Below are positions 7,813-33,031 of a DNA stretch of 44,748 nucleotides, piece after piece. The position numbers and the translations under genes are program-made. The stretch's first letter is position 1. Every line of letters starts with the position of its first letter. Source of the stretch: Escherichia phage Schulenburg; the sequence record MK931438.1. One strand, written 5' to 3'. The notes beneath the pieces are model-generated. The model saw only the letters and a list, made by a program, of their open reading frames with translations, had not been told where the DNA came from and made no database searches.

Positions 7813-7814
7813 TA

Positions 7815-8880: not shown

Positions 8881-8908
8881 AGAGGGACTTCGGTCCCTCT
8901 TTTCATTT
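8881..8908 (+). terminator. intrinsic terminator after major capsid gene
   Basis: agagggac-ttcg-gtccctct hairpin followed by TTTCATTT. Confidence 0.6.
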
Positions 8909-8923
8909 ACTAAGAGGTGATTT

Positions 8924-9223: not shown

Positions 9224-9235
9224 AGGAGCTTAAAA

Positions 9236-9577: not shown

Positions 9578-9613
9578 TACGACGGCCCTTCGGGGCCGTA
9601 ATAAGGAAAGGTC

Positions 9614-9793: not shown

Positions 9794-9796
9794 TTC

Positions 9797-10309: not shown

Positions 10310-10311
10310 AA

Positions 10312-12090: not shown

Positions 12091-13229
12091 ATATGGCTAC
12101 AACTCCTTTTAAGGGCGCGAATACCGCGCAATTCTATGTGGCGGAAACTACCCCGGGCGTGACACCGACTTCCCCGGTATGGTCGCCGTTGCGTAATACT
12201 GGCGGCGTTCCCGCGATTACCCGCGACACTTTGACCTCCAACGAACTGGACGGCAGCCGCGAAACTACGTCAATTCGCACTGGTAACAAACAGGTTAGCG
12301 GTGAATACGCCATCGAGCTTAGCTCTAAAAGTCAGGATGACTGGCTGGCAGGTGCTTTAGGCTCTACGTGGCAATCAGGTGTATCCTTAACTGACCTGTC
12401 AATTACCGTCGCACCGGCAGGCAAGACGTTCACCCGTGCTGATGGTAGCTTTATTACCGACGGCGTTGAAGTAGGCGACCTGATTGCGTTTACCGACTTA
12501 ACGGGAGATAACGCAAAACCGTTCATCGTCACTGCGGTAGAGGCACTGGTAGTGACCGGTGCGGGCATCCAGCACACTCTCACCACAGAGACCGCTACTA
12601 CTGCTGCTAAGACAGGCGACAAACTGGAAACCGGTAGCCAGTGTAAGACGTTCTCTATTCTCACATGGTACAAAGGCCAGTGCGGCGGGACTGACGCGTA
12701 CACGCTTACCAAAGGTGTAGAAGTTTCTGGTTTCACTGTTGAGCAGGCCGTTAACGCGATGGTAACGGGCAGCTTCCCGTTCATCGGGCGCAGCCAGGAG
12801 ATTCTCACCGAGCCGCCGTCTGGTTCTGATTTCTCCTCTGTTACGTTTGGTGATGAGCCGTTCTCCTCAGTTGACGTTTCTGTGTTCGATGGCTCTACGC
12901 CGTTGCGTTGTGATAGCCTTACCATCACCAACGACAACAGCGCGTCCGCGCAGTTCGAACTCGGCAACACTAACGTTGCGTTTGTGGAACGTAGCCGCGC
13001 GGCCAACACCTTCTCCATCTCCGGTAAGCTGTACGACATGGCGATGATTCAGAAGTTTATCAACGAACAGCAGGTAGAGATTAACTCTATTCTGGCGGGG
13101 GTAAACGGGGCTATGTCTTTCAGTCTGAAACGTGCAGAACTCACGGCGGTTACGCCAGAGATTGGTGGTCCTGAGTCAATCACTCAGAGCATAGAAGGAC
13201 AGTCAACAGGCAATCAATATCAATCTTAA
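12087..13229 (+). CDS. major tail protein (putative)
   Basis: 380-aa ORF upstream of chaperones and tape measure, followed by a strong terminator. Confidence 0.6.
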   Translation: MNMATTPFKGANTAQFYVAETTPGVTPTSPVWSPLRNTGGVPAITRDTLTSNELDGSRETTSIRTGNKQVSGEYAIELSSKSQDDWLAGALGSTWQSGVSLTDLSITVAPAGKTFTRADGSFITDGVEVGDLIAFTDLTGDNAKPFIVTAVEALVVTGAGIQHTLTTETATTAAKTGDKLETGSQCKTFSILTWYKGQCGGTDAYTLTKGVEVSGFTVEQAVNAMVTGSFPFIGRSQEILTEPPSGSDFSSVTFGDEPFSSVDVSVFDGSTPLRCDSLTITNDNSASAQFELGNTNVAFVERSRAANTFSISGKLYDMAMIQKFINEQQVEINSILAGVNGAMSFSLKRAELTAVTPEIGGPESITQSIEGQSTGNQYQS

Positions 13230-13243
13230 TCAATATCAATCTT
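13212..13243 (+). repeat. tandem direct repeat, 2 x 16 nt (aatcaatatcaatctt)
   Basis: Exact 16-mer duplicated back-to-back across the stop codon of the major tail gene. Confidence 0.5.
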
Positions 13244-13273
13244 CTATTGTAATACAGCGCATTAGCTACGCGT

Positions 13274-13310
13274 AAGGAAAAGGCCCCTTTCGGGGCCTTT
13301 TCCTTATTCC
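13274..13310. terminator. strong bidirectional intrinsic terminator
   Basis: Perfect 14-bp stem aaggaaaaggcccc / ggggccttttcctt with TTTC loop, A-rich 5' side and T-rich 3' side; between convergent genes. Confidence 0.7.
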
Positions 13311-13477
13311 TTCAATTGCATTGGGTAGAAGTTAACGAGTTCTCCTTTATCCCGAAGCCGTGAATATTCATCTAACGCATCTTCCCGGCTACTTACAGCA
13401 TAGATATCATTCCACTCGTCCCATTCTTTGTCGTATACGCGGATTATGTATATTGTTTTCATTACATTCTTACTCAT
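13304..13477 (-). CDS. hypothetical small protein (57 aa)
   Basis: Minus-strand ORF, ATG at 13477 (M15 of track ORF 13304-13519); last gene of the moron operon. Confidence 0.4.
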   Translation of the reverse strand: MSKNVMKTIYIIRVYDKEWDEWNDIYAVSSREDALDEYSRLRDKGELVNFYPMQLKE

Positions 13478-13700
13478 CAATATTACTCCTGTACTCTCGT
13501 AACTTCTCCAGACTTTCAATTGCTTCCGCTAAGTCGGTTCCGGTGTCTTTGTGCCCGCGAAGGCCCATACACAATAGCTTCTTCAATGCGTGCTGTAGCG
13601 CCGGGTCGCGAATGTCGAAGGCACGCAGCACATCATAAACGTCTACTGTCATAGTGCTGCCGTGAGTGTTTGTCATTGTGCGGTTGTATTTATTTGTCAC
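13470..13700 (-). CDS. hypothetical conserved small phage protein
   Basis: 76-aa ORF with GTG start preceded by AAGAGAG; motif DVYDVLRAFDI...HALKKLL..GLRGHK. Confidence 0.45.
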   Translation of the reverse strand: MTNKYNRTMTNTHGSTMTVDVYDVLRAFDIRDPALQHALKKLLCMGLRGHKDTGTDLAEAIESLEKLREYRSNIDE

Positions 13701-13890
13701 TGTTAACTCTCTTAAATCTGGCTATGCCTGACTCGTTAATGTTGCCTATTTCAAAGAAGCTGCGATATTTAGGCGAATACATTCTTACATCGCCATTCTC
13801 TAGGGTGACCCCTTCATATACAGCACCTACTTCGAATCCATTTTTCTCCGCGTACGGACTCACATCGGTGCATTCATACATGTCTTTCAT
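13690..13890 (-). CDS. hypothetical protein (66 aa)
   Basis: ATG overlaps stop of upstream gene (ATGA); same operon. Confidence 0.45.
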   Translation of the reverse strand: MKDMYECTDVSPYAEKNGFEVGAVYEGVTLENGDVRMYSPKYRSFFEIGNINESGIARFKRVNSDK

Positions 13891-15017
13891 CCAAGCATCT
13901 CCGGTGAAATAGTTAAACGTGCGACCTCGCCATATTCGGCGCTATAAGTAATTACATTTGCACTACGACCTGACATCCATCCGCCGCGAGAGGCGTAGGC
14001 GTCTTTAGCCGCCAGGGTGCGGTGTTGCTCAACAACCATGTTACGGCTTTCTACAATCTTCTGATGGTGCAGGTGGCCTACATGGGCGTAGCTGTAAACA
14101 CTCTCGCCGAACGCTTTGCGGAACTTGGCAATCATAACCGGTTCGATAGCGTCGAATCGTGCCTTATGCCCGTGGTGAAAGAACAGCGTCGTTTTGCCGT
14201 GTTGCACCATCTTGTAAACATCTGGCGACGTGTCGACGAACACCCGCGGCTCGTTGTCGTACAGCGTACTAAACATCTCAGCTAACCAAATCATTCCGCT
14301 TTCGTCGTGGTTTCCTTGCACGATAAGCAAGCGAACATTTTTATGCTTAACCAGCGCCATACCGACAACACGGCGTACCATACGAATCATGTAGCGGACC
14401 AGTTTCTGATAACGAGTGTCCGCATCAAGAACATGACCACTCGCTGGCGTAACCGCATCCAGACTATCGAAGTGCGCGAAGTCACCCAGCAGGTTAATAA
14501 CCCCAGTTCCTGCATCTGGTGCTTTCTGAAACGCCGCATCGAACCATCGGGAGAACAGGTCTTCTGCAATCTTCATGTCCCAGTCGTCGCCGCTCTCGTC
14601 GGCCCAGGCCAGCATACCGAGATGGAAATCAGATACAGTGTAAAGATTAAGTAGTTTATCGTCACGTTTGGCGCGAACGGCTTTAACAGGCGCAACCGGC
14701 GTAATCTCTGACTTCATGCCCTCGATTACAGCTTTCATCAACTCGACCTGACGTTCAGCGTCAGTGTCTGTCTTAACCCATTGCAACTTAGTGTTGCCGA
14801 ACTCGTCCACAAGCGACGACGTTCCTTTAATCTTGTAGCCGTCCGGGACAAGATGGCTAACGTCACGACCGTGACCTACGCCTTTCTTCGCCAGCTTCGC
14901 TTTACGGATACGAATAACTCGGTCTGAGATGCCGTATTTACGGGATATGTCGATAATCTTTGTTCCGGCGTTCAATTCTTCCTGTAACTGTTCGTCGGTT
15001 ATTTTAATCCGGGCCAT
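13887..15017 (-). CDS. HTH-domain + calcineurin-like metallophosphoesterase
   Basis: Metallophosphoesterase motifs in order: DFHLG, GDFAHFD, GNHDE, HHGH, GHLHH; N-terminal ~100 aa HTH-like; GAGGAAG SD. Confidence 0.7.
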   Translation of the reverse strand: MARIKITDEQLQEELNAGTKIIDISRKYGISDRVIRIRKAKLAKKGVGHGRDVSHLVPDGYKIKGTSSLVDEFGNTKLQWVKTDTDAERQVELMKAVIEGMKSEITPVAPVKAVRAKRDDKLLNLYTVSDFHLGMLAWADESGDDWDMKIAEDLFSRWFDAAFQKAPDAGTGVINLLGDFAHFDSLDAVTPASGHVLDADTRYQKLVRYMIRMVRRVVGMALVKHKNVRLLIVQGNHDESGMIWLAEMFSTLYDNEPRVFVDTSPDVYKMVQHGKTTLFFHHGHKARFDAIEPVMIAKFRKAFGESVYSYAHVGHLHHQKIVESRNMVVEQHRTLAAKDAYASRGGWMSGRSANVITYSAEYGEVARLTISPEMLG

Positions 15018-15056
15018 GCTTTACTTCCTCGTGTTTAGGATTTGTCCTATACTAGC

Positions 15057-15248
15057 TCACTTCTCTTTGACATTCGAGTTGCAAGCCCAGATTAAAATAA
15101 ATACCCACGGCAGCAGAACCCAGCCAAGAAACAGATTGGCCATGAATATCGCTAATTTCGCTTTATGACCCCGCATATGGGCCACTAAAAACGGGATAAA
15201 ATAAACTAAAACGATAATGATTAAGAAGAACATAGTAATACCTGTCAT
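15057..15248 (-). CDS. superinfection-immunity-like small membrane protein
   Basis: 63 aa, two predicted TM helices, motif YFIPFLVAHMRGHK...LGWVLLPWVFILIWA resembling Imm-type families; AGGAG SD. Confidence 0.5.
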   Translation of the reverse strand: MTGITMFFLIIIVLVYFIPFLVAHMRGHKAKLAIFMANLFLGWVLLPWVFILIWACNSNVKEK

Positions 15249-15289
15249 GGTGTAGCTCCTGTTTGAGTTAACATTGTTGGTGTAAGTGA

Positions 15290-15318
15290 ATAGTATCCTA
15301 TTATGTTGGGGTGCGCAA
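15290..15318 (-). promoter_or_regulatory. type-B promoter/operator (TTGCGC-N17-TACTAT over palindrome AATAGGATACTATT)
   Basis: Same architecture as sites near 6185, 38175 and 39101; about 40 nt upstream of the Imm-like gene. Confidence 0.45.
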
Positions 15319-15426
15319 GTAATGTGATAGAATAATTTTGCGCCTAGTGTCGCACACGAAAAGCGGGTGGTTCCCGTCTGGCGCATTTACCATTAACCTG
15401 TAACCTCTTAACCAAAGGATTAAAGA

Positions 15427-15843
15427 ATGAAACTTTCTGATTTTTATTACGAAGCTGAGGCAGAAAAAGGCGCCCGTATGCCGATACCACTGAAAGACGG
15501 CACCGATTCAGGGGAGTGGCTGAACGTTGTTTCACCGGAGGCAGACGTTGCTGTTAAAGCTATGAGGGCGTTTACACTTGCGTACCGCGCGGCATTAGGT
15601 AAATTGAAACCGCTTCGCGATAAATGCGAGGAACTGAAAGATTTCTCGGAATACAACATCAAGATGGAAGACGCCGCAACGGACCTTAACCGCCAGTTAG
15701 CGCTTGAACTGGTTAACGGTTGGAGTCTCGACGATGAATTTAATAAAGAGAACCTGAATACTCTTTTCTCACAATATAAACGACTCGCTGAACACGTTGT
15801 TGTTTTCCACAATGAACAGCTTCACCAATTGCAGGAAAAGTAG
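15427..15843 (+). CDS. tail assembly chaperone (gpG-like, putative)
   Basis: 138-aa ORF immediately upstream of tape measure gene. Confidence 0.5.
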   Translation: MKLSDFYYEAEAEKGARMPIPLKDGTDSGEWLNVVSPEADVAVKAMRAFTLAYRAALGKLKPLRDKCEELKDFSEYNIKMEDAATDLNRQLALELVNGWSLDDEFNKENLNTLFSQYKRLAEHVVVFHNEQLHQLQEK

Positions 15844-15848
15844 ACGCG

Positions 15849-16208
15849 TTGCTCCAGTTTGCCCGTTGGAACTTCATAACCCGCCACAAACGGCGGGAGT
15901 TTGACAGTATCGCCGACGGGCATAAAGCCGCGCTAATTGCTATGGGGGTTATGCAAGACGCGCCGGAAGCAACGCAGGACACAGGGCCGGAATGCCCCCC
16001 TGAGCTATTAACCACCTTCGAGAAGTACAGGGAAATCAAATTCACCCGCCGAGTGGACGATGATGGCATCAAGATGTACCCGCGCGAACAGTTAAGATGG
16101 TCGGATTTAGTGGCATACAGCACCGTTTCAGGCCAGAATATAGGCATGTTCGAATCTGACATCATCATGAGCTTAGACGCTATTTTCGAGGGTAGAAACG
16201 ATGGCTGA
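15849..16208 (+). CDS. tail assembly chaperone, second ORF (TTG start or frameshift extension)
   Basis: -1-frame ORF between chaperone 1 and TMP, overlapping TMP start; no ATG, only a TTG. Confidence 0.4.
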   Translation: MLQFARWNFITRHKRREFDSIADGHKAALIAMGVMQDAPEATQDTGPECPPELLTTFEKYREIKFTRRVDDDGIKMYPREQLRWSDLVAYSTVSGQNIGMFESDIIMSLDAIFEGRNDG

Positions 16209-18537
16209 TGTAGCTAGTTTAGTTGTAAAGGTATCAGAGCAAGGCGCGAAAGCTACATCGGACCGTCTTGATAATCTCTCCAAGTCGGCAAAAGTAGCGG
16301 GGGCAGCCGTAGCCGGACTCGCTTCAATCGTCGCCGCGACAGCGTACAAGGCCGCACAGGAACTGGTAGACTCCCAACGGCAACTGGACAAGATGTCCGC
16401 CAGCCTGAAAACGCTAACCGGAAGCACGCAGGGGGCAAGACAGGCGTTAAGCATCCTGCAAGACTTCGCGCGCGACACTCCGTATGGCCTTGAACAGGCG
16501 GTAGAGGGATTCCGTAAACTGGTGGCTCTCGGCCTTACCCCCTCAGAAGAAGCGTTGCGCTCCTATGGCAACACTGCCGCTGCTATGGGTAAAGACCTTA
16601 ATCAGATGATTGAGGCCGTTGCGGACGCCAGTACATTTGAATTTGAGCGCCTTAAAGAATTCGGCATCAAGGCCAAGCAGAACAAAAACGATGTTGAATT
16701 TACATTCCAGGGCACCACTACGGTAGTTAAGAAGAGCGCTGCCGACATCGAGCAATACCTGCTCAACATTGGTAACGTAAACTTCGCGGGGGCTATGGCG
16801 GACCAGGCCAACACACTTAACGGGGCCATCGCCAGTGCCAGCGACTCATGGTCGCAGTTAAAAATGACACTGGCTACCAGCCTTGATGTTGGTGCTCTTG
16901 CGGAGCCTATCCGGTACATCGATGATTTAATCCAGGAACTTAACGCACAGGTAGCATCCGGCGAACTCGCTGCTGAGATGCGTATGTGGGGCGACATCGC
17001 GTCAGAAGTGGGAAGCGCGATAGAGATGTCGTTCGACGCGGCATTTGGTTTCGTAGGCGACGCAATAAACGGGCTGAATGAACTTTGGGACTTTAGCAGT
17101 AAAAGTATCACCGATAGCGGCGAACAAACGGCGACAACCATCGCGGAATCAGCTGCCGATGCGCTCGATTTCATCGCGGAAGAATTTACCGCGATGGAGC
17201 GCTTCTTTGAAGATATGGTTAAAGGGGCACAGGACGCTGGCCGGTTGGTGAAAGCTGCCTTCACACCAGGGGAATCCGTAGACGTAGCAAAAAACATTAA
17301 CTTCCAGCTAGGGATGGCACTGGATACTCAGCGTGATGTTGCGGACCTGACCCGTAAAAGTTTCCGCGAACAGGTGGAGGCTCAGCAAAATATCGTCGCG
17401 CTTAAACGCGCGGCATATGACATCGACAAAGAAGCCGCTAAGGAAGAAGGGCTTAGTAAGTTTAAGGTAACTGGTGCCGGTGGCGGATCCGAAGATGATA
17501 GCGCAGGTGCAAAAGCCGCTAAGAAAGCGGCGGACGCGTTCGAGCGCCAGAAGAAAGCCGCTGAGGATTTCTACTACCAGTCGATTCATCTCAATGATGA
17601 CGTATTCCAGAAAATAGAAGCCAACCAGGAACAGCAGCTAACCAAGCTACAGGAGTTTTACGGCAATCAGCTTCTTAGCGACCAGCAATACGAGAACGCT
17701 AAAACTCAGATTATGTTGGAGGCGGACACCGCTCGCCAGGAAGAACTCGCCAAGCGGGAGAAAGAACGACAGGAGAAGAACCAGAAAGGTGAAGACTTCA
17801 TGGCTCAGACTATGGGTCAGAATGCCGCAGAGCTTGAGCTTTTGGAGATTCAGGAACAACAAAAACTGGACGTTGCGGACCGATACCGTGAACAGAATCT
17901 TATTAACGAGGAACAGTACCAGGCTGCGGTTAATGCTATAAACGACCAGTACGCGTTAAAACGCGCCAACGCTACAGGTAACGCTTTCGGCATGATGGCG
18001 GATAATATTAAATCGTCGCTTGGCGAAGCGTCTACCGCTTATAAAGCGTTTGCCATTGCGCAGGCCACCATCGCCACATACACATCCGCCATCGAGGCTT
18101 ATAAATCTGCATCGGCTATCCCTATTGTTGGATGGGTGCTCGGGCCTGTAGCAGCAGCTACAGCGGTAGCGGCAGGTCTCGCTAACATCAGCAAGATTCG
18201 TTCGGCCCGTGAGCAGGGCGGTAACTTAGCCGCAGGTCAGTTATCTACTATCGCGGAACGTAACAAGCCAGAAGTTATTATGCCTGCAGGGGCGTCACGC
18301 GTACGTACCGCGGAACAGATGCGCCAGATTATGGGCGAGAACGGCAACAAGTCAGGCGGTGACAGCGTGACAATCGTCAACAACACCACCGGACGAGTTG
18401 ATTCCGCCGTTACAGAGCGTGACGACGAAGGGCGGTTACGTGTTATCATCAGTGAAACAGTATCGGCGGCGTTACAAGACAGCAACAGTGCAATCTCCAA
18501 GTCCCGCCGGGCTACACGAAACCAGCCGGGGTATTAA
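16201..18537 (+). CDS. tail tape measure protein
   Basis: 778 aa, long Ala/Glu/Gln-rich coiled-coil segments, C-terminal hydrophobic stretch; position after chaperones. Confidence 0.85.
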   Translation: MADVASLVVKVSEQGAKATSDRLDNLSKSAKVAGAAVAGLASIVAATAYKAAQELVDSQRQLDKMSASLKTLTGSTQGARQALSILQDFARDTPYGLEQAVEGFRKLVALGLTPSEEALRSYGNTAAAMGKDLNQMIEAVADASTFEFERLKEFGIKAKQNKNDVEFTFQGTTTVVKKSAADIEQYLLNIGNVNFAGAMADQANTLNGAIASASDSWSQLKMTLATSLDVGALAEPIRYIDDLIQELNAQVASGELAAEMRMWGDIASEVGSAIEMSFDAAFGFVGDAINGLNELWDFSSKSITDSGEQTATTIAESAADALDFIAEEFTAMERFFEDMVKGAQDAGRLVKAAFTPGESVDVAKNINFQLGMALDTQRDVADLTRKSFREQVEAQQNIVALKRAAYDIDKEAAKEEGLSKFKVTGAGGGSEDDSAGAKAAKKAADAFERQKKAAEDFYYQSIHLNDDVFQKIEANQEQQLTKLQEFYGNQLLSDQQYENAKTQIMLEADTARQEELAKREKERQEKNQKGEDFMAQTMGQNAAELELLEIQEQQKLDVADRYREQNLINEEQYQAAVNAINDQYALKRANATGNAFGMMADNIKSSLGEASTAYKAFAIAQATIATYTSAIEAYKSASAIPIVGWVLGPVAAATAVAAGLANISKIRSAREQGGNLAAGQLSTIAERNKPEVIMPAGASRVRTAEQMRQIMGENGNKSGGDSVTIVNNTTGRVDSAVTERDDEGRLRVIISETVSAALQDSNSAISKSRRATRNQPGY

Positions 18538-18540
18538 CCA

Positions 18541-19941
18541 ATGAGTGATTTGAGATTCCCTATGTCCCTTCGACCAATAGTGTCGAAGGGGTACTCCCAA
18601 ACGCGAGGGAGTAATATCTGGCGTACAGAAGTGCAAGGTGGCGTGCCGCGACAGGGGCGTGATACATACTTTGAGCCAGTGCCGATTAGCGTTACGCTCG
18701 TCGTATCGTCGCTCGGGCGACAGGTGTTCTATAGCTTCCTGAACAACATAGACGGCGGTGCGTCTTCATTTATCATGCCGCACGATACGGGTTTAGGTCT
18801 CGAAGACCACCGGGTACTTATTACGTCGGACATTAGCGACAGCACCGACGATGGTAAAAACTGGGTAATTACTTTCACAGCAACCGCGGAGCGGACTGCG
18901 ATTCAGGAAGATACCTGCCTTACGAAGAATCTGCCAGATTTGTATGGTTGCTACGGGGATTGTCTGGGTAGTTTCCTGAAAATATACGCGAACTATGAGA
19001 CTACGTTCCCGCGCATCTGGAGCGATGAAGGGCCTGCAGGATACCCGCCGATTAACCTTCTGGCGTCCGCCCTGGATAGCCGCATTGTGTACGACGGGCC
19101 GCAGGTTTATTACATCAACCGCAACGGCAATCTTGTGCAATCAGCCACTAATGAATGGCCTCTAACATTTATTGATGGTGTTGCCGTTGGGCGTGTGCCG
19201 CCGGAGGTTGGTGGTCTAAACCTACTAAAAATGTCAGAGGACTTATCGGATCCCGTATGGGCGAAAACAAGGACTACTGTTACCTACGGTGGAACGCAAG
19301 ACCCTACCGGCGGAACGGGCGCATCCAAACTAGTCCCAACAACAACCACTGGTACTCATAACGTTTTACAATTGATAACCCCGGAAGCATCTACGGCATA
19401 CACCTATTCTGTTTTTGTGAAAGCAAATGGGTACAATAATGCTCTTGTTCAGATCGGAGTATTTGCTAGTCAGGTGGCAAGTAATCCTGTTTATGTAGAC
19501 CTATCTACGGGGGTGATAACATCAGCTAATGACTATTCAAGATGCGGTATAATAGCAGTAGGTGATGGCTGGTTTAGAGTATGGGTGCGAGTTATTACTA
19601 ATTCCTCCCCGACAAGTATAAACGCGTCTGTGTGGGCCTCTGACGCTGCTAACAACACGTCTTTCCCAAGTGATGGTGTTAGTGCTATATCAGTTTTTGG
19701 TGCCCAAATGGAGAAATCTACTAATTCATCGTCGTATATTAAAACCGAAGAAAATTTAATTACACGCCCTACAGCCTCGGCAAAAGTAGTAATGAGCGGA
19801 GCAACAAGCATCGACATTACATATTCCGACGACTCTGTGGTAAACGTTCCGTCTGTTGACGGTTATGCCTCCATACCCCAAGCGGATTCGGCGTGGGGTA
19901 GTAAATACATCACTCGTATCGACTTTAATGTGGACGGTTAA
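18541..19941 (+). CDS. distal tail protein (putative)
   Basis: 466-aa ORF immediately after TMP; positional. Confidence 0.45.
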   Translation: MSDLRFPMSLRPIVSKGYSQTRGSNIWRTEVQGGVPRQGRDTYFEPVPISVTLVVSSLGRQVFYSFLNNIDGGASSFIMPHDTGLGLEDHRVLITSDISDSTDDGKNWVITFTATAERTAIQEDTCLTKNLPDLYGCYGDCLGSFLKIYANYETTFPRIWSDEGPAGYPPINLLASALDSRIVYDGPQVYYINRNGNLVQSATNEWPLTFIDGVAVGRVPPEVGGLNLLKMSEDLSDPVWAKTRTTVTYGGTQDPTGGTGASKLVPTTTTGTHNVLQLITPEASTAYTYSVFVKANGYNNALVQIGVFASQVASNPVYVDLSTGVITSANDYSRCGIIAVGDGWFRVWVRVITNSSPTSINASVWASDAANNTSFPSDGVSAISVFGAQMEKSTNSSSYIKTEENLITRPTASAKVVMSGATSIDITYSDDSVVNVPSVDGYASIPQADSAWGSKYITRIDFNVDG

Positions 19942-19944
19942 TTT

Positions 19945-20460
19945 ATGAGCCAGGAATCAGTAGAAGCTGCCTATCGCCGTAAGCTGGCCTCAAATCCCGA
20001 CGGCGAAATTGACTACACGACGCTGGAGATAGTACACCCGCTTCTTTCAAAGCGGTATTTGCTTGTGCGCGGAACTTCCGACCTGACGGCGACGTTAGAG
20101 ACCGGAGAAGTCGTAACGTTTGAGGCTACCCCTATGGAGGCTAAAGGGGCCGCCAACAATAACGACATGGACCAGCGGGCGTCGTTCGCATTACCTGATA
20201 TTGGTAACCAGTTAGATGATGAGATGGACAGGATACCGCCTGATAATACCGTGCTACCTAAATTCATATTCCGCCGTTTTGTTGGTACTGATTTGTCTTA
20301 CCCGGCTGACGGGCCTGTTGTGTACGAGTTGCAGTCGATAAACCAGGAAAAGGGGCTATTTACCGCCGACGTTGGCGTTCCTATGTTGAACCAAAGGGCC
20401 ACTGGTGAACTAATGACCCCTTCAGTAATCCCATTGTTACGGGGCGTTTTGTTCACATGA
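19945..20460 (+). CDS. minor tail protein
   Basis: 171-aa ORF in tail tip cluster. Confidence 0.45.
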   Translation: MSQESVEAAYRRKLASNPDGEIDYTTLEIVHPLLSKRYLLVRGTSDLTATLETGEVVTFEATPMEAKGAANNNDMDQRASFALPDIGNQLDDEMDRIPPDNTVLPKFIFRRFVGTDLSYPADGPVVYELQSINQEKGLFTADVGVPMLNQRATGELMTPSVIPLLRGVLFT

Positions 20461-23368: not shown

Positions 23369-23380
23369 AGAGGACTCTAT

Positions 23381-25753
23381 ATGTCAAGCGGATGCGGTGA
23401 CGTTTTAAGCCTGGCGGATTTACAAACCGCCAAGAAGCACCAGATTTTCGAAGCCGAGGTTATTACCGGTAAATCCGGCGGCGTAACCGGTGGTGCGGAT
23501 ATCGATTATGCGACCAACGCGGTTACTGGTCAGATGCAGAAGACTCTCCCTGCCGTGTTGCGAGATGCGGGGTTCTTCCCGGCATCTTTTGATTTCACTA
23601 CCGGCGGGACATTATCGGCTACAGACCGCAATAAGGTCGTTTATGACCCAGTAAGCATGGCCTGGTATTCATGGGGCGGTTCTTTACCAAAGGTTGTCCC
23701 CGCGGAAACTAACCCGTTACTGGACACAAATTGGAAACCGCAAACAGACCCGAATCTACGCAATGACCTTGAAAATGGCATGTACAGAACGGACGCAACC
23801 GCCGTTAAATATGTTCCTGGGGTGGTTATAAACAGCACAACAGATAACCGGGCCGCATTGTATGCATTCCCTGGCAAAGTTTATATCCCAAAAGACGTCC
23901 AGCTACGCTGTAATTTCCTGCCAGATGATGATGTAACAAAATTTACTGGTGAAGGAAAAATTCTCACGCGCGACCCATGGGGTAACGAGCACATTTTCGA
24001 CGTTTCACTGGCAACTCATGGGAGCAAATACACTGCATTCAACGTAATAAACCAGTTCGCTCGCCGCAATACGCTATGTCGTGTTGGTATCATTGGTGAC
24101 TCAATCACAGACGGCGCATACGGAACCGACTGGGTAGCCAACCCAACTGATTCAAACGGGGACCTTTCTTCGACTAATTACGACCACAATGGCAATGGTG
24201 GCGCAGGTTCCTGGTTCCGTACCTTCACGGACTGGCTTAACCAATTTACAAAAAATGGTGCTTTCATCTTTAAAGCAGAAAACTGCGCATCTTCTGGAAA
24301 GCGACTTATTGACGGGTGGGCTAATCGTAATTTCGACCATGGCTTTTTCAAAAACACTGCATACGGGAATGTTCCACCGGATGTCTGCTTTATGTCTATG
24401 GGCGTTAACGATAACGGCCAACTGGATACGTTAGGGTTCGATCAGTACTTATTCCGTTTTGAGCAGTTTATCCGTAAAGCATGGGGCTATGGATGTGCTG
24501 TCTGCGTTGTTTCAATGAACCAGAATGGCTCACAATGGGCGGCTCTCGAGGCATCAATCAAGAAGCATATTGAACGCCTGTTCCCCGCGGTAGAGTTCCT
24601 CGATCTCTCTCAGGCAGTAACTGAGATGTACAGAGATGTCGGTAGCTACACCTTAGAAGAAATTTGCCGTCGTCCTACCAATGGCTCTTTCGACTACACG
24701 CACTTTGCGCCCCTTGGTCACCAATATATTGGCGCTTATGCCGCGACCAAGGTTATGCCTTATCGCGTCCATAAGGCCGCAAAAGGGAATAATTTCCTGC
24801 CTGTGTCGCCTAACGATATCCAACCATTCGGGTACCCTTCCGGCAGTACATATGACGTTTCTATGGAGCGACTTAGCGGAAATTCATACCTGAATGGGCT
24901 TACCGGATGGGGCGTGGTTAAACCCGCTACTGAAAATTTAACCATACGATATTTTGTCTGGTGTGATACTTCTGACATATCAATGGTTATTTTTGAGCCA
25001 TATAACCCTACTTACATTGGTTCCGGGCGCGCAAATACTGTATCAATACGCCAACAAGATACCCGTAATACAGCATATATCTCCGGTAATATCGCGAGTA
25101 ATGGCGTCTCATCGTTTACGAACAAACTCACCACACGAACTGGGATCCTTAGAAAAGGACTGAATAAGATTGAGATTGTTTACGATGGTACGCCGTCGAA
25201 AGTATACCCTCCCGCTCTGTTATTCAGAGGAGAGCTGAACGAATCATGTTCTCAGAACACCTCTGTATACTTGGCTGCAAATGCGATAAAGGGTGTTTAC
25301 GGTCAATTAAGGGATAAAGCTGATTTGTTATTGTCATATGCGGCTGAAACCGCAAATGATGAAGCGCCGGATATGTACGGCGCTACTAAGTCATCAAATG
25401 TTCAAAATGTTGTCCTGTCAGCTTTGCCCGTTGATTGTGGTGTTGTTTTTTACTACAAACCCACGTCACAAAGTGGAGTTGTCGCCAAGCGAGTGGCGAC
25501 TGGCATCGAGATCTCGACGATGCTTTTTGGCGCACTTACTGTTATCGGCACCTTGACTTGCGATGTGACCGGCGAAGTCATGCTCACAGCCGGCCTGGCA
25601 CCTTCAGTACCTACAATAACAGTTAAACCCACTACCGGCGGCACTGTTCAACAAACTGTTACTGGTCACTCTGGCGGCAAGATAGCCCTGATTAACAAGG
25701 GGGCTTCCGGTAACACAATAACGGTTAAATCTTCATCTCAATTCGTCATTTAA
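23381..25753 (+). CDS. tailspike / receptor-binding protein with SGNH (GDSL) esterase domain
   Basis: SGNH blocks in order: GDSITDG (block I), GVNDNG (block III), DYTHFAPLGH (block V D-x2-H); 790 aa; last gene of tail module; AAAGAGGA SD. Confidence 0.7.
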   Translation: MSSGCGDVLSLADLQTAKKHQIFEAEVITGKSGGVTGGADIDYATNAVTGQMQKTLPAVLRDAGFFPASFDFTTGGTLSATDRNKVVYDPVSMAWYSWGGSLPKVVPAETNPLLDTNWKPQTDPNLRNDLENGMYRTDATAVKYVPGVVINSTTDNRAALYAFPGKVYIPKDVQLRCNFLPDDDVTKFTGEGKILTRDPWGNEHIFDVSLATHGSKYTAFNVINQFARRNTLCRVGIIGDSITDGAYGTDWVANPTDSNGDLSSTNYDHNGNGGAGSWFRTFTDWLNQFTKNGAFIFKAENCASSGKRLIDGWANRNFDHGFFKNTAYGNVPPDVCFMSMGVNDNGQLDTLGFDQYLFRFEQFIRKAWGYGCAVCVVSMNQNGSQWAALEASIKKHIERLFPAVEFLDLSQAVTEMYRDVGSYTLEEICRRPTNGSFDYTHFAPLGHQYIGAYAATKVMPYRVHKAAKGNNFLPVSPNDIQPFGYPSGSTYDVSMERLSGNSYLNGLTGWGVVKPATENLTIRYFVWCDTSDISMVIFEPYNPTYIGSGRANTVSIRQQDTRNTAYISGNIASNGVSSFTNKLTTRTGILRKGLNKIEIVYDGTPSKVYPPALLFRGELNESCSQNTSVYLAANAIKGVYGQLRDKADLLLSYAAETANDEAPDMYGATKSSNVQNVVLSALPVDCGVVFYYKPTSQSGVVAKRVATGIEISTMLFGALTVIGTLTCDVTGEVMLTAGLAPSVPTITVKPTTGGTVQQTVTGHSGGKIALINKGASGNTITVKSSSQFVI

Positions 25754-25757: not shown

Positions 25758-25790
25758 AAAAGGCCCCGAAAGGGGCCTTTTCTCTACTTT
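25758..25790. terminator. bidirectional intrinsic terminator at structural/replication module boundary
   Basis: aaaaggcccc-gaaa-ggggcctttt hairpin with flanking A and T runs. Confidence 0.65.
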
Positions 25791-25917: not shown

Positions 25918-26409
25918 TCACGCGGTTTCTCCGTGGTTTTCATGAAATCCGTAAGCAGCTTCCGCAGCTTTACGCGCGGCGACAGCTTCGTCAAAATTAT
26001 CAAACCTTCCAATAGTTTTTGTCTTTCTAAATTTGGTTATTTGTACCAACCACTTGCACCGCTCTTTGTCAAATGACACCCCTACCGCCCCAGACCTATT
26101 ACGCCCGGTAGCCAGCCTGTTCATAGCGTTTTCCTGCTTAGTAACTACCCTTAAATTTGCGAGCCTGTTATCTGCGCGATTATGGTTCTGATGGTCTATT
26201 TCCATGCCGTCTGGTATAGGCCCATTGAACATTTCCCATATGACCCGGTGTGCGCGGTAGATAACCCCGTTGTAGCGAAACTGAATGTAGCCGAACTTGT
26301 TTAGTGTTCCGGCTACAGCACCTTTAGCAACATTTTTAGCAGGTTTTATAACCCATATTAGATTTCCGGTCTCCGGTTCATACCGTAGTACATTCTTCCA
26401 GATAAACAT
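25918..26409 (-). CDS. HNH endonuclease with AP2 domain
   Basis: HNH motif EIDHQNHNRADNRLANLRVVTKQEN; C-terminal AP2-like GVSFDKERCKWLVQI...GRFDNFDEAVAARKAAEAAYG. Confidence 0.8.
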   Translation of the reverse strand: MFIWKNVLRYEPETGNLIWVIKPAKNVAKGAVAGTLNKFGYIQFRYNGVIYRAHRVIWEMFNGPIPDGMEIDHQNHNRADNRLANLRVVTKQENAMNRLATGRNRSGAVGVSFDKERCKWLVQITKFRKTKTIGRFDNFDEAVAARKAAEAAYGFHENHGETA

Positions 26410-27830
26410 TATCGTTTCCTTCTCTTCATATAATTAAGTAGTTCGTCCTGTACAGACCTTTTCTCGTCTGTACGCGCGGCGACAACTTCATCAAGAGTAT
26501 CTCGGGCTATTATTTTATAAATGAATACAGACCGTTTGTATCCGGATTGCATCTGCCTTACTGGGCCTATACGCTCGATAACCTGCAGATAATGTTCCAG
26601 GTTCCACCCCTGACTCATAAAAGCCATGTGATGCCCGCCGTGTTGTAGCGACAGCCCGTGGCCCGCGGAGGCTGGGTGTATCAGGAGCATAGGTATCTCG
26701 CCACGGTTCCACGCTTCCATCTGCTTATTACCCTTGGCCCCTTTGGCAAACGCCTGGGCTTGTGGGAATCTCTTAAGGATGCGCTCCAGTTCATGCTTGA
26801 ACTGATAGGCCACCAGTAACGGCGCACCATGCAACTCTTCAACAATGGACTCCAGCGCGTCCAGCTTCGTGTCATGCACTTTCTCCCAGTCTTTCGTTGC
26901 TTCGCCATCTGGCCCTGATACATACACGGCACCGGACGCAATCTGCAAACACTTAGATGTCTTCGCAGCCGCGTTAGCCGCTTCAACTTCTCCGCTCTCC
27001 AGTTCCGCGAATAGCTTCTCCTCCATATCTATGTACGCCTGACGCGCTTTCTTCGGCAGGTCAATTTCCACCGGCACGATAATCGGCGCTTCACAACCGA
27101 ACCACTCGGCGGCGTCAATCGTCAGGCTAATGTCTTTCATCTTCTGGTGAATTTCATTATCCGCACCAGGGCGTGCATGATACTCACGCGCCATAGCCGA
27201 TTTGCCTTTCTGTACCGAGTTAAACCATCGGTCGGTGAATGCCGTGTATGAAGAACCGAGGCGCTCGCCCGCGTCGATAAACCAGTTCTGACCCCACAAG
27301 TCTTTGAGGCCGTTCGGTGACGGCGTTCCCGTCAGGTTTATAAAACGCTTGACCCTACCGAACGCAACCTTGCTAAGCGCCTTTGCCCGCTTGCTGCCAC
27401 CTGAACGACTGCGGAATGATTTCAGTTTCGTGCTCTCATCGGCAACGATAACCGTAAAAGGCCAGTCGTCTTTGCCGTAATAGTCAATAAGCCACTCGAT
27501 AACTTCGTAGTTTGTACAGACCACATTAGCGTCTGACTCCAGTGCCGCGATGCGGCGCTTCTCTGAACCTGTCGCATCTACGACGCGCAGACACGGGAAT
27601 CGCCATTTCTCTTGTTCTGATGGCCATGTGCCGGACGCAACACGCAGCGGGGCGAGGATTAACACGCGGTCGTCGTCCGTAAGCTGCCCGTTGCGGAACA
27701 GTCGGTTAAGCACCCACATCGTTGCGGAACTTTTGCCGGCGCCCATCGAAGCCCAAATATTACAGCGAGGATGCTGTAGCATGAACGAAGTCATGAGCTT
27801 CTGGTACTCGCGCCTTTGAAACTTACTCAT
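26409..27830 (-). CDS. SNF2/DEAD-like helicase
   Basis: Walker A ASMGAGKSS; DExx box VIVADESTKLK; 473 aa. Confidence 0.75.
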   Translation of the reverse strand: MSKFQRREYQKLMTSFMLQHPRCNIWASMGAGKSSATMWVLNRLFRNGQLTDDDRVLILAPLRVASGTWPSEQEKWRFPCLRVVDATGSEKRRIAALESDANVVCTNYEVIEWLIDYYGKDDWPFTVIVADESTKLKSFRSRSGGSKRAKALSKVAFGRVKRFINLTGTPSPNGLKDLWGQNWFIDAGERLGSSYTAFTDRWFNSVQKGKSAMAREYHARPGADNEIHQKMKDISLTIDAAEWFGCEAPIIVPVEIDLPKKARQAYIDMEEKLFAELESGEVEAANAAAKTSKCLQIASGAVYVSGPDGEATKDWEKVHDTKLDALESIVEELHGAPLLVAYQFKHELERILKRFPQAQAFAKGAKGNKQMEAWNRGEIPMLLIHPASAGHGLSLQHGGHHMAFMSQGWNLEHYLQVIERIGPVRQMQSGYKRSVFIYKIIARDTLDEVVAARTDEKRSVQDELLNYMKRRKR

Positions 27831-28685: not shown

Positions 28686-30857
28686 TTACTTAGCATAGCG
28701 CTTCATCTCCGCACCTTCTGCAACCAAAGGGAATCCCTCCGCCCAGTCAGGCAATTCACACATCAACCTCTCAAGCTCTGCAACATTGTATTCAGGCGAA
28801 TCTGGCGTCTCGCAGATAATCTCATCGTGTACATGAAGCACAATCGGGTAGCCGTTTGCTTCAACTTTAAGTAGCGCGTTAGCCAGCAAATCACGGCACA
28901 ACGCCTGCGTACAGTTTTCCACCAGTTTGCCTGAGTACGTGTACTGGAATCCCCACTGACGCGTTAACTGGTTCTCCCCCTGGTACTTGATGCGCACGTT
29001 AGTAGAAACTTTTCCGTCTTCGTCTGTCTCTTTCGACACGCTTAAACCGACGCCAGGGTAGGACATAACACGTCCCGACGGCAACGTCATGCGCAACCAC
29101 CAACCCGCTACCTTGTTGCCGTTGTTGTCTGTTTCTACGTTGCGGGAAAACTTAACTCCGCGCGGGCCAGCGGAGAACTCTTTCCCCGGATTACGTATAG
29201 CTGCCATAGCTGCGTCTTCAATATCGCGCCAGAATTGTACTATCGCCGGGTTGGCTTCCCGGTACATTCGTTTCAGAGCGTCACATGTACGCCAGACTTT
29301 CTTATCAAGGATATATGATGGTCGGTCATCCTTTTCACCCGGACGCGGAGGACGTTTAGCTTCCTGAATACGTGCCCACTCGTAACCACGTGCCGTAGCG
29401 GCCCATATATGGTCAGGGAAAGTTCCAGCTAAAATGTTAGTCATGTCGTTCAAATCAAGCCCTAAGTTTTTAGCAAACGTGACGAAAGCGCCCACACCCC
29501 CCGCGTAGCCCAGTCCGAGAACCATTGCTTTGGCTATTTGTCTTTGGTCTTTTGTTACGTCGTCATAACTAACATTGAACACGGTTGATGCGAGTTTCTT
29601 GTACACATCAACTCCGTTTACAAATACTTCTATTAAATCGTCTTCACCCGCCAGCCAGGCCAGCCCACGACCTTCAACGTTAGAGTAATCGGCAACAACA
29701 AACTTGTGTCCGGCTTCCGGGATGATGCAGCTACGCACCGTCGATGCCGTCAGCTTGGCGACATCAAAGCGGCGATGTGCACGTCCTTTCAGTAGCGCAG
29801 AAATACCTTTATCCAGTTCATCGTCATGATAGTACCCGCGGGCCAGGTTCTGTGGCTGGAAGCCTTTGCCAGCGAATCGTAGCGTACGCTTAGCCCCGCC
29901 GTACTGGATACAACCACGGCGGCGGTCGTCTGACGAGCGGCCTAGCAACAGCGGGTTATATTTCGTTGACGCAGTTGACGCGGCCCCGAGGCGCATTTCG
30001 ATAATCATGCGTGCATCGTCGGGTAAATCCTCGTCAGCCAGCAGGTCGTTAAGAGTAGACTTCTGTGCGTTATGGATGCGATGCGCAGGGGCCAGTTCAC
30101 GCAGAATCGGCAGGAAGTCTTTACCGGTAAGCGAGCCGCCGTATTTGCGCTGGGCTTCTTCCTGCAACTGCGCCTTGTGCTTCTCTACGGCTTCAATCGC
30201 TGCTTCCGCCAGCGCAACATCAACCTTGAACCCACGGTCATTGATTAACTGGTCCAGTTCCAGTACACGGTCTTCGAACTCAGAGTTACCCCACCGCGGC
30301 AGCTTATGGAAGACTTCACGCATCGCGGTGATGTCGCTCACGGCGTACTTGATGAACAGCGCCCACTCGTCCAGGTGCGTTTCGGCGGTGTAGCGGCGGA
30401 TTTTGTAGTTCTTCGGCGTAGGTTTAGAGAAACGCTGAATCAGCGCCTTGCCGCGTTTATCTTTCGCGTTGTCTGCCGATACACCCAGCACTTCGCACAA
30501 CGCATCAAGTGAACCCGGCAGCGCGTGGCGAAACGCCCAAATCATCGTATCAATGGTGTTGCTTACAGGAATATCAAAACCCCAGCAGTGTTTCATGATG
30601 AGCCTGTCGAACATTGAGCCGTTGTGCCACACCATCTTGATACGGCTGTTCGGCTTAACCAGGCGGCGTAAGGCGCGGTGCAAATCCCCCGGCATGTCGC
30701 TGCCGTCGGTGCAATCCCATACCTGCACAGGCTCGTCATCAAAAGCATAGGTACAGATTAGCACTTCGGTAGTTGGATGTTCGGCGTAAGCGTAAGAACC
30801 GACTTTCTTTAAATCGGCCTCGGAGAATGTTTCAAAGTCCAGGTATAAGTAGCTCAT
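28686..30857 (-). CDS. DNA polymerase, family A, with 3'-5' exonuclease domain
   Basis: Exo I motif YLDFETFS; Pol I motif A VVADYSNVEGR, motif B RQIAKAMVLGLGYAGG, motif C HVHDEIICE; ATG at 30857 (AAGGAAAAAG SD) preferred over TTG 30911. Confidence 0.85.
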   Translation of the reverse strand: MSYLYLDFETFSEADLKKVGSYAYAEHPTTEVLICTYAFDDEPVQVWDCTDGSDMPGDLHRALRRLVKPNSRIKMVWHNGSMFDRLIMKHCWGFDIPVSNTIDTMIWAFRHALPGSLDALCEVLGVSADNAKDKRGKALIQRFSKPTPKNYKIRRYTAETHLDEWALFIKYAVSDITAMREVFHKLPRWGNSEFEDRVLELDQLINDRGFKVDVALAEAAIEAVEKHKAQLQEEAQRKYGGSLTGKDFLPILRELAPAHRIHNAQKSTLNDLLADEDLPDDARMIIEMRLGAASTASTKYNPLLLGRSSDDRRRGCIQYGGAKRTLRFAGKGFQPQNLARGYYHDDELDKGISALLKGRAHRRFDVAKLTASTVRSCIIPEAGHKFVVADYSNVEGRGLAWLAGEDDLIEVFVNGVDVYKKLASTVFNVSYDDVTKDQRQIAKAMVLGLGYAGGVGAFVTFAKNLGLDLNDMTNILAGTFPDHIWAATARGYEWARIQEAKRPPRPGEKDDRPSYILDKKVWRTCDALKRMYREANPAIVQFWRDIEDAAMAAIRNPGKEFSAGPRGVKFSRNVETDNNGNKVAGWWLRMTLPSGRVMSYPGVGLSVSKETDEDGKVSTNVRIKYQGENQLTRQWGFQYTYSGKLVENCTQALCRDLLANALLKVEANGYPIVLHVHDEIICETPDSPEYNVAELERLMCELPDWAEGFPLVAEGAEMKRYAK

Positions 30858-31009
30858 TTCTTTTTCCTTAAATCCAGTGCCTTCGTTTCGCTTAATCTTA
30901 TTTTCATACAATCACAGCAAATCCACACATGCTTGTACCCGGCCCGGTACTCATCTGCATACCACGGAAGCGGTTTCATATAGCGATAAACGTGCTTACA
31001 GAAAAACAT
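30854..31009 (-). CDS. small Cys-rich protein (51 aa, putative zinc-binding)
   Basis: Not in ORF track; MFFCKH...WICCDCMK; stop overlaps polymerase ATG (ATGA), suggesting translational coupling. Confidence 0.35.
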   Translation of the reverse strand: MFFCKHVYRYMKPLPWYADEYRAGYKHVWICCDCMKIRLSETKALDLRKKK

Positions 31010-31021
31010 TATTTTCGACCC

Positions 31022-31049
31022 TTAGTAAAAAGGCCCAATGAAGGGCCTT
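31022..31049 (-). terminator. intrinsic terminator-like hairpin (minus strand)
   Basis: aaggccc / gggcctt stem followed on minus strand by TTTTT; downstream of the DUF2815-like gene. Confidence 0.45.
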
Positions 31050-31068
31050 AGTTAAATTGATTCAGATA

Positions 31069-31695
31069 TTAGCGGCGACGACGTTCGCGGCGCGGTGCTT
31101 CATCTTCTTCGTCGTCTTCCAGGTCAGTAACACTTGCAGAGACTTTAGAACCGCCAAACGCTTTACCTTCGCCGGCGTATTTAATCGCCAGCAGGTTAAC
31201 GCCGAGGACTTTATATTTCTGGCTGAACCAGATTTCAACGCTTACGTTAGCGACGCAGCCGCTGTAAACCTGTTCACCTTCAATCTGTTCGCCTTCGACG
31301 TTGAAGTCAGGCTCTACCTGAGTTTCACCTTTTTTAGAGGTTACAATCAGAGGTTGTTTCTGTGCCTTCGCTTTGAAGTAGAAGCCTTCCGGGAAGTCTT
31401 CAAAAGGATTATCACGCTCGGCGATGTCCTTAATAGCACATTTATCCATGTGCTTGCCTTCGCCGTAGTTTGACTTCATCCACTTCTCGGCAGCAGCGGC
31501 CCCCAGTGCTTCCTCTACAACCGCATAAACAGTGTCGTACATTTCGTCGATTTGCGCATGGTCAGACGGCAGAATGATAGTCGCGCTGTACTGACCTTTA
31601 GTGATAGAGCCATCGTCGTTTTCACGGTCTTTTTCGCGTTCGAATACGTTAACCCATGCAGTGTTTACTTTACGCAGATTTAATTTCAGTCCCAT
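31069..31695 (-). CDS. ssDNA-binding-like protein (DUF2815-like)
   Basis: 208 aa with acidic Asp/Glu-rich then Arg-rich C-terminal tail; adjacent to DUF2800-like nuclease and polymerase. Confidence 0.5.
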   Translation of the reverse strand: MGLKLNLRKVNTAWVNVFEREKDRENDDGSITKGQYSATIILPSDHAQIDEMYDTVYAVVEEALGAAAAEKWMKSNYGEGKHMDKCAIKDIAERDNPFEDFPEGFYFKAKAQKQPLIVTSKKGETQVEPDFNVEGEQIEGEQVYSGCVANVSVEIWFSQKYKVLGVNLLAIKYAGEGKAFGGSKVSASVTDLEDDEEDEAPRRERRRR

Positions 31696-31753
31696 TTGAT
31701 TTCTCGCTTTTAAGTTTCGTTTACTCCGGGAAGCTGCCCGGCCAGTGATTAGA

Positions 31754-31782
31754 ACTATAATAGCTAACTATTCAGGTGTCAA
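31754..31782 (-). promoter_or_regulatory. type-A promoter with operator in spacer (TTGACA-17-TATAGT; AATAG-N4-CTATT)
   Basis: Perfect -35, 17-nt spacer containing inverted repeat gAATAGTTAGCTATTat; immediately after the DUF2800-like stop. Confidence 0.55.
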
Positions 31783-31786
31783 CACT

Positions 31787-33031
31787 TTATTCTAAATCTT
31801 CTTCACTAACCTGATTCCACTCAGGCCGTTTGTCGTCTGCCGTTGCTACACATGGTGCACCTGGCTTACGTGTGATGAAGTCTTTCAGTTCTTCTTCCGG
31901 TATAACTTTAACCGCTTCGGTCGGCGTCATGAGAACGACTTTGTTCAGCATAGTGCCGTATTTCTCAGCCACCTTATCAGCGTCTTTCCACGCACGATTA
32001 CCCGGACGACCCTCGACCAGCTTGTAACCCGGCACTTTCTTGCCAGAATGCAACGCGGCAGCCATAGCTTTCTCAACCTTGTCGATGTGCTGGCGCAACA
32101 ACGGCAGCTTCTCATACTCGGCGACGAGTTGCTCGGGTGTCAGTTCCAGCGCAAAGTCGTCCTCCAGTTCTTCCACCAGTACAGAATTAACAGTCTTCGT
32201 CCTGGCGACGCACTGTTCCGAGAACCGGCACCACTGGCAACCATCGACTGACGGCTTAAAGTCGGACGCTTTCAGGTTCTTCTTACCACGGAAGTACGCA
32301 TCGAGTGCTAACAGCGCGCGTTTATGTGCGAACTTAGTGAACAGTTCCAGGCCTTCAACCGAGATATCCCACTCCGACGCACCGCCAGCATACGGCTGGA
32401 AGATGACCAGACGAACAGTTGTTATGTTATATCGTCTCTTTAGTCGGCGATAAACACCGAGAGCGTAAAGCATAAGCTGCTTGTTTTCTTTCGCTTCGAC
32501 ACGATGCCGTCCGGTTTTCAGGTCACCAATAATGAGCATGTGCTCGTCGGTGTTCGCCAGTTCCTGCACGGCAACAAGGTCAGCGGTCCCGAACGTCTCA
32601 ACGCCTTCATATCCCGGATGCAGCACCTCTGTAAGATTGACGCGCATTTCCAGCTTGGCGTAAGTCGCTACGTCGATAATCGGTTTGCAGTAGTCGGTGT
32701 ACTTACGCACCTGCTCAATCATGTCCGCCGTAATAAGTACCGCACCTTTCATAAGGCTGATTAACGCCTTAATCTGGCCTTTGCCTTCATCCAGCACGTA
32801 AGCCCCGACTTCACGCTCTAACGGCAACGCAGTGCCTTTGATGTACTGGTTAAGGTGAATCTCAGCTATGGTGTGCATGGCTGTGCCCAATACGGCGGCT
32901 TTACCTGACGTATTTGGAATGTCTTTTTCACATGCCAGTGATGCACTGCACGTCAGCCACTTCTTAGCGCCTGACGGCGACAACAGGGCGTGCACATCGT
33001 TATTGCCGCCGCGTTCTTTTAGTTTCATCAT
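31787..33031 (-). CDS. PD-(D/E)XK Cas4-like nuclease (DUF2800-like)
   Basis: N-terminal HALLSPSGAKKWLTC, nuclease motif TADLVAV...IIGDLKTG, C-terminal Cys cluster CQWCRFSEQC. Confidence 0.7.
   Translation of the reverse strand: MMKLKERGGNNDVHALLSPSGAKKWLTCSASLACEKDIPNTSGKAAVLGTAMHTIAEIHLNQYIKGTALPLEREVGAYVLDEGKGQIKALISLMKGAVLITADMIEQVRKYTDYCKPIIDVATYAKLEMRVNLTEVLHPGYEGVETFGTADLVAVQELANTDEHMLIIGDLKTGRHRVEAKENKQLMLYALGVYRRLKRRYNITTVRLVIFQPYAGGASEWDISVEGLELFTKFAHKRALLALDAYFRGKKNLKASDFKPSVDGCQWCRFSEQCVARTKTVNSVLVEELEDDFALELTPEQLVAEYEKLPLLRQHIDKVEKAMAAALHSGKKVPGYKLVEGRPGNRAWKDADKVAEKYGTMLNKVVLMTPTEAVKVIPEEELKDFITRKPGAPCVATADDKRPEWNQVSEEDLE

Follow-up and report, generated by a model that had tools for sequence, protein, structure and literature searches.

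What does the last tail gene of Escherichia phage Schulenburg do to the surface of its host? The sequence analyzed (record MK931438.1; the whole stretch of 44,748 nucleotides (nt) is called the window here) contains an open reading frame (ORF) of 790 amino acids (aa) that begins with ATG. An initial annotation, made from the letters alone, had read it as a tailspike with an SGNH (GDSL) esterase domain that defines host range through an acetylated surface glycan. Our analysis points to a receptor-binding esterase tailspike of the G7C type, which would deacetylate the host O-antigen and set the host range; we give this reading a probability of roughly 0.8. The spike would set the host range because it would both bind and deacetylate the O-antigen. 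It reveals no new kind of system and is an uncharacterized member of the known esterase tailspikes.

Catalytic residues and kinship with G7C gp63.1

SGNH blocks I (GDSITDG), III (GVNDNG) and V (DYTHFAPLGH) are present exactly as the initial annotation described them. The GDS of block I and the DYTH of block V (aa 438–441) are the sole GDS and the sole DxxH in the spike. Block II (NCASSG, with N301 and G306), absent from that annotation, is also present. A search of approximately 5.8 billion proteins returned 1,669 homologues (E≤1e-5), and an alignment of 27 homologues, with identities between 85 % and 28 % and G7C gp63.1 among them, was used to examine conservation. The residues G239, D240, S241, I242, T243, D244, G245, N301, G306, G341, N343, D344, D438, and H441 are invariant, so that the Ser/Asp/His conservation proposed earlier as a check extends to the most distant homologues. 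Residues S241, N301, G306, N343, D344, D438, and H441 of the spike pair with S276, N340, G345, N382, D383, D470, and H473 of G7C gp63.1, respectively. The invariant positions coincide with the SGNH nucleophile, the oxyanion-hole residues, and the acid/base pair, and the motif set is thus far beyond chance. The predicted fold of the domain is the three-layer α/β/α fold of the SGNH family.

When the spike was compared with all sequences of the Protein Data Bank (PDB) using phmmer, one strong match was found, 4QNL (G7C gp63.1; E 5.9e-98), with aa 72–616 of the spike aligned onto residues 104–664. Foldseek also placed 4QNL at the top of the PDB (E 3.5e-65, template modeling (TM) score 0.72, 823 aligned columns), and this alignment covered the C-terminal domain. 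The two proteins are therefore homologous over aa 72–616 by sequence and over nearly the whole length by structure. The next-best Foldseek matches were the esterase spikes of the Shigella phages B2 (E 2e-18) and Moo19 (E 2e-11). Tail_spike_N, Gp63_3rd_G7C, SGNH, and G7C_GBD follow each other in the spike as in G7C gp63.1, with the three Pfam domains above their cut-offs. Judged by sequence and by the predicted structure, the spike is a member of the G7C gp63.1 esterase-tailspike family.

The AlphaFold2 monomer model was built on the 27-sequence alignment. The mean predicted local distance difference test (pLDDT) score is 83.4; it is approximately 90 from aa 150 onward and low only in aa 1–60. 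Beta strands run throughout aa 481–616 and 627–789, as expected from the C-terminal beta-rich region of the initial annotation, and pLDDT in the C-terminal domain is approximately 85–95. A fold search with the model gave matches to CBM66 and galectin-type beta-sandwiches, which were not assigned to one domain. The C-terminal 174 residues, searched alone, matched zero Pfam families at E≤1, PF22245 (G7C_C) included, and BLASTP of this domain against G7C gp63.1 showed zero similarity. Comparison of the profile of the spike C-terminal clade with that of the G7C_C clade by hhalign gave a probability of 91 % (E 9e-7). Of these searches, only the comparison of profile with profile brought the kinship out. 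On this evidence, aa 617–790 is most reasonably classified as a diverged version of the G7C_C domain.

The N-terminal part had been predicted to attach the spike to the virion, and it is recognizable as such. The spike genes of approximately 100 other Kagunavirus records have only nt 1 to ~290 in common with this gene (~80–85 % identity) and are divergent after that point. The tail-spike families PHROG 29731 and 20900 match aa 1–114 and 1–132, respectively. Similarity to G7C gp63.1 and to the prophage spikes described below starts at Tail_spike_N.

The O-antigen as the likely substrate

The window is a Snoke-like Kagunavirus (Guernseyvirinae). Its identity to Escherichia phage Snoke (MK931441) is approximately 98 %, with 98.5 % across 95 % of bases 1–20000 and 97.7 % across 93 % of bases 20001–44748. 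It is probably a complete genome and a new isolate of Snoke's species. The two records share their base-1 start and measure 44,748 and 44,454 bp. The tailspike genes are 99.8 % identical, with five nt and two aa differences (L232R and N434D, window residue first; Snoke protein QEG06979.1). These residues, the only differences between the two spikes, lie nine residues before Ser241 and four residues before Asp438, respectively; no functional effect is implied, because both columns vary among homologues. The genes of phages Shashou and Sciku occupy the same genomic slot and are ~97.7 % identical at the nt level. We searched 50,697 phage records by tblastn with the part from the esterase to the C-terminus, and only 18 records matched; the set comprises Snoke, Shashou, Sciku, G7C, Pectobacterium CB1-like phages, Nepra, Aeromonas ST4, Penshu1, Pisces, and SKA64. 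Snoke, Shashou, and Sciku were the only Kagunaviruses of this collection with the esterase module.

The genome announcements name E. coli 4s as the strain on which Snoke, Shashou, and Sciku were all isolated and propagated. The G7C literature describes this strain as a horse-feces isolate that served as the host for G7C, with an O22-like, laterally glucosylated and O-acetylated O-antigen; it also reports that E. coli 4s resists G7C when it is rough or when a wclK- mutation deprives it of the acetyl group. G7C gp63.1 takes off the O-acetyl of the host O-antigen, leaves the backbone untouched, and is essential for infection (Prokhorov et al. 2017, as related by citing papers). Among Kagunaviruses, the esterase module tracks selection on a host with an acetylated O-antigen, and this link is correlative but strong. 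By analogy, the most likely substrate would be the O22-like, O-acetylated O-antigen of E. coli 4s-type strains. An acetylated surface glycan as the determinant of host range, as suggested initially, fits both the homology to G7C and the E. coli 4s relatives, with the O-antigen likelier than a capsule.

Related spikes in prophages were examined for their neighbors. In Enterobacter hormaechei (GCA_041980485.1; positions 8001–13131 of locus L003), the spike gene belongs to a siphovirus-like (long-tailed) prophage with tail genes in an order similar to that of the window, and an O-antigen glucosylation cassette (gtrA/gtrB/Glucos_trans_II) follows immediately 3′. The gene of another homologue (P0046; GCA_902842825.1, positions 8001–10379 of locus L005) stands where a P22-like prophage has its tailspike gene, beside the integrase; this prophage also has gp7/gp20/gp16 ejection proteins and an antirepressor. 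Both contexts fit an O-antigen receptor. Together with the fact that the nearest characterized relatives (G7C, Moo19, B2, and Possum) all act on O-antigen, and with the origin of three near-identical phages from E. coli 4s, a strain on which an esterase spike is proven to use the acetylated O-antigen as receptor, they make it unlikely that the spike is an active esterase with another acetylated glycan as its substrate (capsule/K-antigen, colanic acid, or enterobacterial common antigen). Precedents for a capsule do exist: capsule-acting SGNH receptor-binding proteins are common in Klebsiella prophages, and in other Kagunaviruses the same anchor bears K1 endosialidase spikes, which are specific for a capsule. 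The Vi phages cited in the initial annotation also direct an acetyl esterase at a capsule, but the spike has no detectable sequence similarity to that enzyme.

For O-antigen deacetylation by the spike, we propose the following course. The spike, which like 4QNL is presumably a homotrimer, would be held on the siphovirus tail tip by its N-terminal ~95 residues. The SGNH domain, the galactose-binding-like sandwich, and the C-terminal sandwich would bind the O-acetylated O-polysaccharide. Once activated by His441/Asp438, Ser241 would attack the acetyl ester, and its amide would stabilize the oxyanion together with Gly306 and Asn343; acetate would be freed and the sugar backbone left intact. In a scheme already put forward for G7C, cycles of binding and deacetylation could bring the virion across the O-antigen layer to the outer membrane, and the tail tip would trigger DNA ejection there. 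Strains without the O-antigen or its O-acetyl group should resist the phage. We infer the esterase activity, the substrate, the trimer state, the lack of depolymerization, and the essentiality of the spike from the protein sequence and by analogy.

Some points weigh against this reading. The spike is only ~30–36 % identical to G7C gp63.1 and could act on another acetyl group or glycan. The G7C spike belongs to a podovirus and signals through gp66; on the long non-contractile tail of the present phage, deacetylation may be coupled to infection in another way. The host is known for the near-identical phages, and the window phage is linked to E. coli 4s only through them. The esterase activity of the window and Snoke spikes is a prediction. 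Finally, Pfam Lipase_GDSL_2 (PF13472) scored 22.7 bits on the spike, under its gathering score of 32.9. The search with SGNH/Lipase_GDSL hidden Markov models (HMM) suggested at the outset was thus not borne out by the Pfam profile. Membership of the SGNH family is independent of that profile, as it is supported by the motifs, by homology to 4QNL, and by the fold of the model. G7C gp63.1 itself barely passes PF00657 (26.7 vs. 23.6 bits), and precomputed PF13472/PF00657 matches are present on several homologues. An NCBIfam search of the spike gave a single, meaningless match below threshold.

The low Pfam score and the lack of a family match in the C-terminal 174 residues would be in line with an SGNH domain that is dead or a vestigial binding module, the spike then serving for binding only or hiding a depolymerase in its C-terminal beta-rich domains. 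We regard this as very improbable: the invariance of all catalytic and oxyanion residues in homologues as distant as 28 % identity points to selection for catalysis, and the C-terminal beta-sandwiches are homologous to those of G7C and have no lyase or hydrolase fold. Citing papers also relate that the backbone is not cut by G7C gp63.1, a protein of the same architecture. A hidden depolymerase was rejected as a candidate, as the model contains zero beta-helix and only beta-sandwich matches were obtained.

Probable module exchange and genomic surroundings

Identity to the homologues was computed segment by segment along the 27-sequence alignment. The E. hormaechei prophage spikes are unrelated to the phage spike in aa 1 to ~90. 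They are ~85 % identical to it over aa ~95–790, with 73–100 % by segment from aa ~120–180 on; the maximum of 100 % falls in the esterase core. P0046 has a P22 Head_binding N-terminus and joins the esterase module at aa ~180; other homologues have T7-fibre or tail-collar N-termini. This pattern in the sequences suggests a host-range module that has been exchanged between lytic and temperate phages and across genera. The analysis illustrates such exchange between lytic coliphages and Enterobacter/E. coli prophages. The distribution of the module also bears on whether the enzyme might cleave a non-glycan ester (a lipid or a lipid A acyl chain) or O-acetylated peptidoglycan and so aid envelope penetration, since it follows exchangeable host-range modules. 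The SGNH domain stands in the distal, receptor-binding part of the spike, between sandwiches of a carbohydrate-binding type, and the generic SGNH-fold matches are only 12–19 % identical, against an O-antigen deacetylase as the specific homologue; a role in envelope penetration is hardly credible.

The preferred reading, a spike that deacetylates the O-antigen, can be taken one step further, albeit tentatively. We consider it possible, although somewhat doubtful, that a siphovirus (Kagunavirus) crosses the smooth O-antigen with a non-depolymerizing processive deacetylase alone, and that G7C and the Snoke-like phages, unrelated but sharing a host strain, acquired their ~35 %-identical enzymes independently and for one and the same acetyl group. 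If this is true, G7C and the Snoke-like phages form a natural pair for probing deacetylation as a “molecular motor” independent of the tail machine, and the near-identity to the E. hormaechei prophage spikes implies an acetylated O-antigen epitope common across genera.

The coordinates of the features are given in Table 1. The gene was described at the outset as the last tail gene, and this placement holds. A J-like tip-attachment gene, ending at 23368, lies directly 5′, and the tailspike gene closes the tail module because the genes 3′ of it, an HNH endonuclease and a helicase, run on the opposite strand. The gene order is identical to that of Snoke, in which the spike likewise comes after the J-like tip protein. 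PHROG 21878 (tail fiber) matches the 790-aa spike with E 2.6e-150. In the Snoke record, a terminator is annotated on both strands at the position equivalent to that of the hairpin in Table 1.

Table 1. Features of the tailspike locus, in positions of the window.
Feature	Position	Strand	Basis
Ribosome-binding site (GAGG)	23370–23373	+	7 nt 5′ of the ATG, seen in the sequence; ribosome-binding site at the equivalent place in the Snoke annotation
Tailspike gene, 790 aa, final gene of the tail module	23381–25753	+	ORF; 99.8 % nt identity with CPT_Snoke_033; PHROG 21878
Kagunavirus-type N-terminal anchor, aa 1 to ~95, presumed tail-tip attachment	23381–23665	+	Shared nt; PHROG 29731/20900
Tail_spike_N, aa 71–112	23591–23716	+	PF18668, 27.9 bits vs. 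gathering score 25
Gp63_3rd_G7C (G7C gp63.1 “domain 3”), aa 145–208	23813–24004	+	PF21562, E 9.7e-30, 102.7 bits
SGNH esterase domain, aa ~233–460	24077–24760	+	Motifs, 4QNL homology, predicted fold
Block I, aa 239–245	24095–24115	+	GDSITDG
Ser241, predicted nucleophile	24101–24103	+	Block I
Gly306, predicted oxyanion hole	24296–24298	+	Block II
Block III, aa 341–346	24401–24418	+	GVNDNG
Asn343, predicted oxyanion hole	24407–24409	+	Block III
Block V, aa 438–447	24692–24721	+	DYTHFAPLGH
Asp438, predicted triad member	24692–24694	+	Block V
His441, predicted triad member	24701–24703	+	Block V
Galactose-binding-domain-like beta-sandwich, aa 483–615, presumed glycan-binding module	24827–25225	+	PF21988 G7C_GBD, 35.8 bits vs. 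gathering score 27
C-terminal beta-sandwich, aa 617–790, remote G7C_C homologue	25229–25750	+	hhalign, structure alignment
Bidirectional intrinsic terminator hairpin, end of the tail operon	25758–25781	.	10-bp stem with 6 GC pairs, then T-run

The HNH_3 gene (25918–26409, minus strand) encodes a homing-type endonuclease of 163 aa (PF13392, E 1.6e-23, with a weak AP2 tail) and sits between the tailspike terminator region and the helicase gene. Snoke is without a match to window positions ~25921–26420 and has a 61-aa ORF there instead. At the 3′ end of the helicase gene, beside the HNH_3 gene, identity to Snoke falls to ~82 %; this stretch looks like a homing-associated conversion tract. The Snoke record also lists an intein-containing capsid morphogenesis protein.

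Near-identical spike sequences have been public since 2019, and the same gene bears the labels “tailspike endosialidase” in Shashou (MK931440.1, 22348–24720), “tail spike protein” in Sciku, and “tail fiber protein” in Snoke (MK931441.1, 23491–25863). None of the three genome announcements mentions an esterase, and the GenBank note on the Snoke gene goes no further than an HHpred match to the G7C tail fibre. No endosialidase domain was found in domain searches of the spike, and the Shashou label is without support; it was probably inherited from K1-specific Kagunaviruses that share the N-terminal anchor only. For a small Kagunavirus group whose public labels are vague, and in one case probably wrong, the analysis offers a concrete mechanism of receptor recognition, namely O-antigen deacetylation.

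Comparison with known esterase tailspikes

Esterase tailspikes are already well established, with G7C, Moo19/B2, Possum/PP99, and the SGNH receptor-binding proteins of Klebsiella prophages as examples. SGNH receptor-binding proteins have been reported among the commonest receptor-binding enzymes of prophages, and those of Klebsiella target capsules. Our literature search found zero papers in the searchable library that join Kagunavirus with an SGNH spike. The prophage SGNH spikes of E. hormaechei, E. coli, and Klebsiella differ from the present one in belonging to temperate phages and in having other N-terminal anchors.

The Vi phages, offered initially as the known example, are functional analogues, and homology of the esterase domain was not found. 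Vi II-E1 VIP0040 (29858–32245 of locus L002) is made of Tail_spike_N, a SASA-type esterase (PF03629), and a Peptidase_S74 intramolecular chaperone. BLASTP of the spike against it gave an alignment confined to the Tail_spike_N stretch (E 0.004), the Pfam search found zero match to PF03629 on the spike, and no Vi phages were among the tblastn matches. The Vi II-E1 esterase was rejected as a homologue, as it is of the SASA type and has no detectable sequence similarity to the SGNH domain. What the two have in common is a tail protein with an acetyl esterase for an acetylated surface polysaccharide and a Tail_spike_N-type domain before the enzyme; they differ in that the Vi II-E1 substrate is a capsule and its phage, per its record, a Macdonaldcampvirus and not a member of the Guernseyvirinae. 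The domain set of Vi II-E1 is a separate route to an esterase spike.

Moo19 gp82 and B2 gp48/gp49 (PDB IDs: 9D81 and 9D84) hydrolyze p-nitrophenyl acetate, and the Pectobacterium phages Possum (gp66) and PP99 have proteins with O-antigen deacetylase activity. All four phages require an O-acetylated O-antigen. They are podoviruses of the Schitoviridae, and B2 works via a two-protein complex. The Moo19 and B2 spikes are far more distant from the present one than G7C gp63.1, with 10–13 % identity in the structural alignment.

The closest known system is G7C, a podovirus, whereas the window phage is a siphovirus with a single spike. At the N-terminus, the spike has a Kagunavirus tail-tip anchor, where G7C gp63.1 binds gp66 through its N-terminus and is part of a branched podovirus adsorption apparatus. 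At the C-terminus, unlike G7C gp63.1, it has no PF22245 match, and the kinship of this domain is seen only when profiles are compared. The spike adds a siphovirus example to a tailspike family that has been studied chiefly in N4-like podoviruses.

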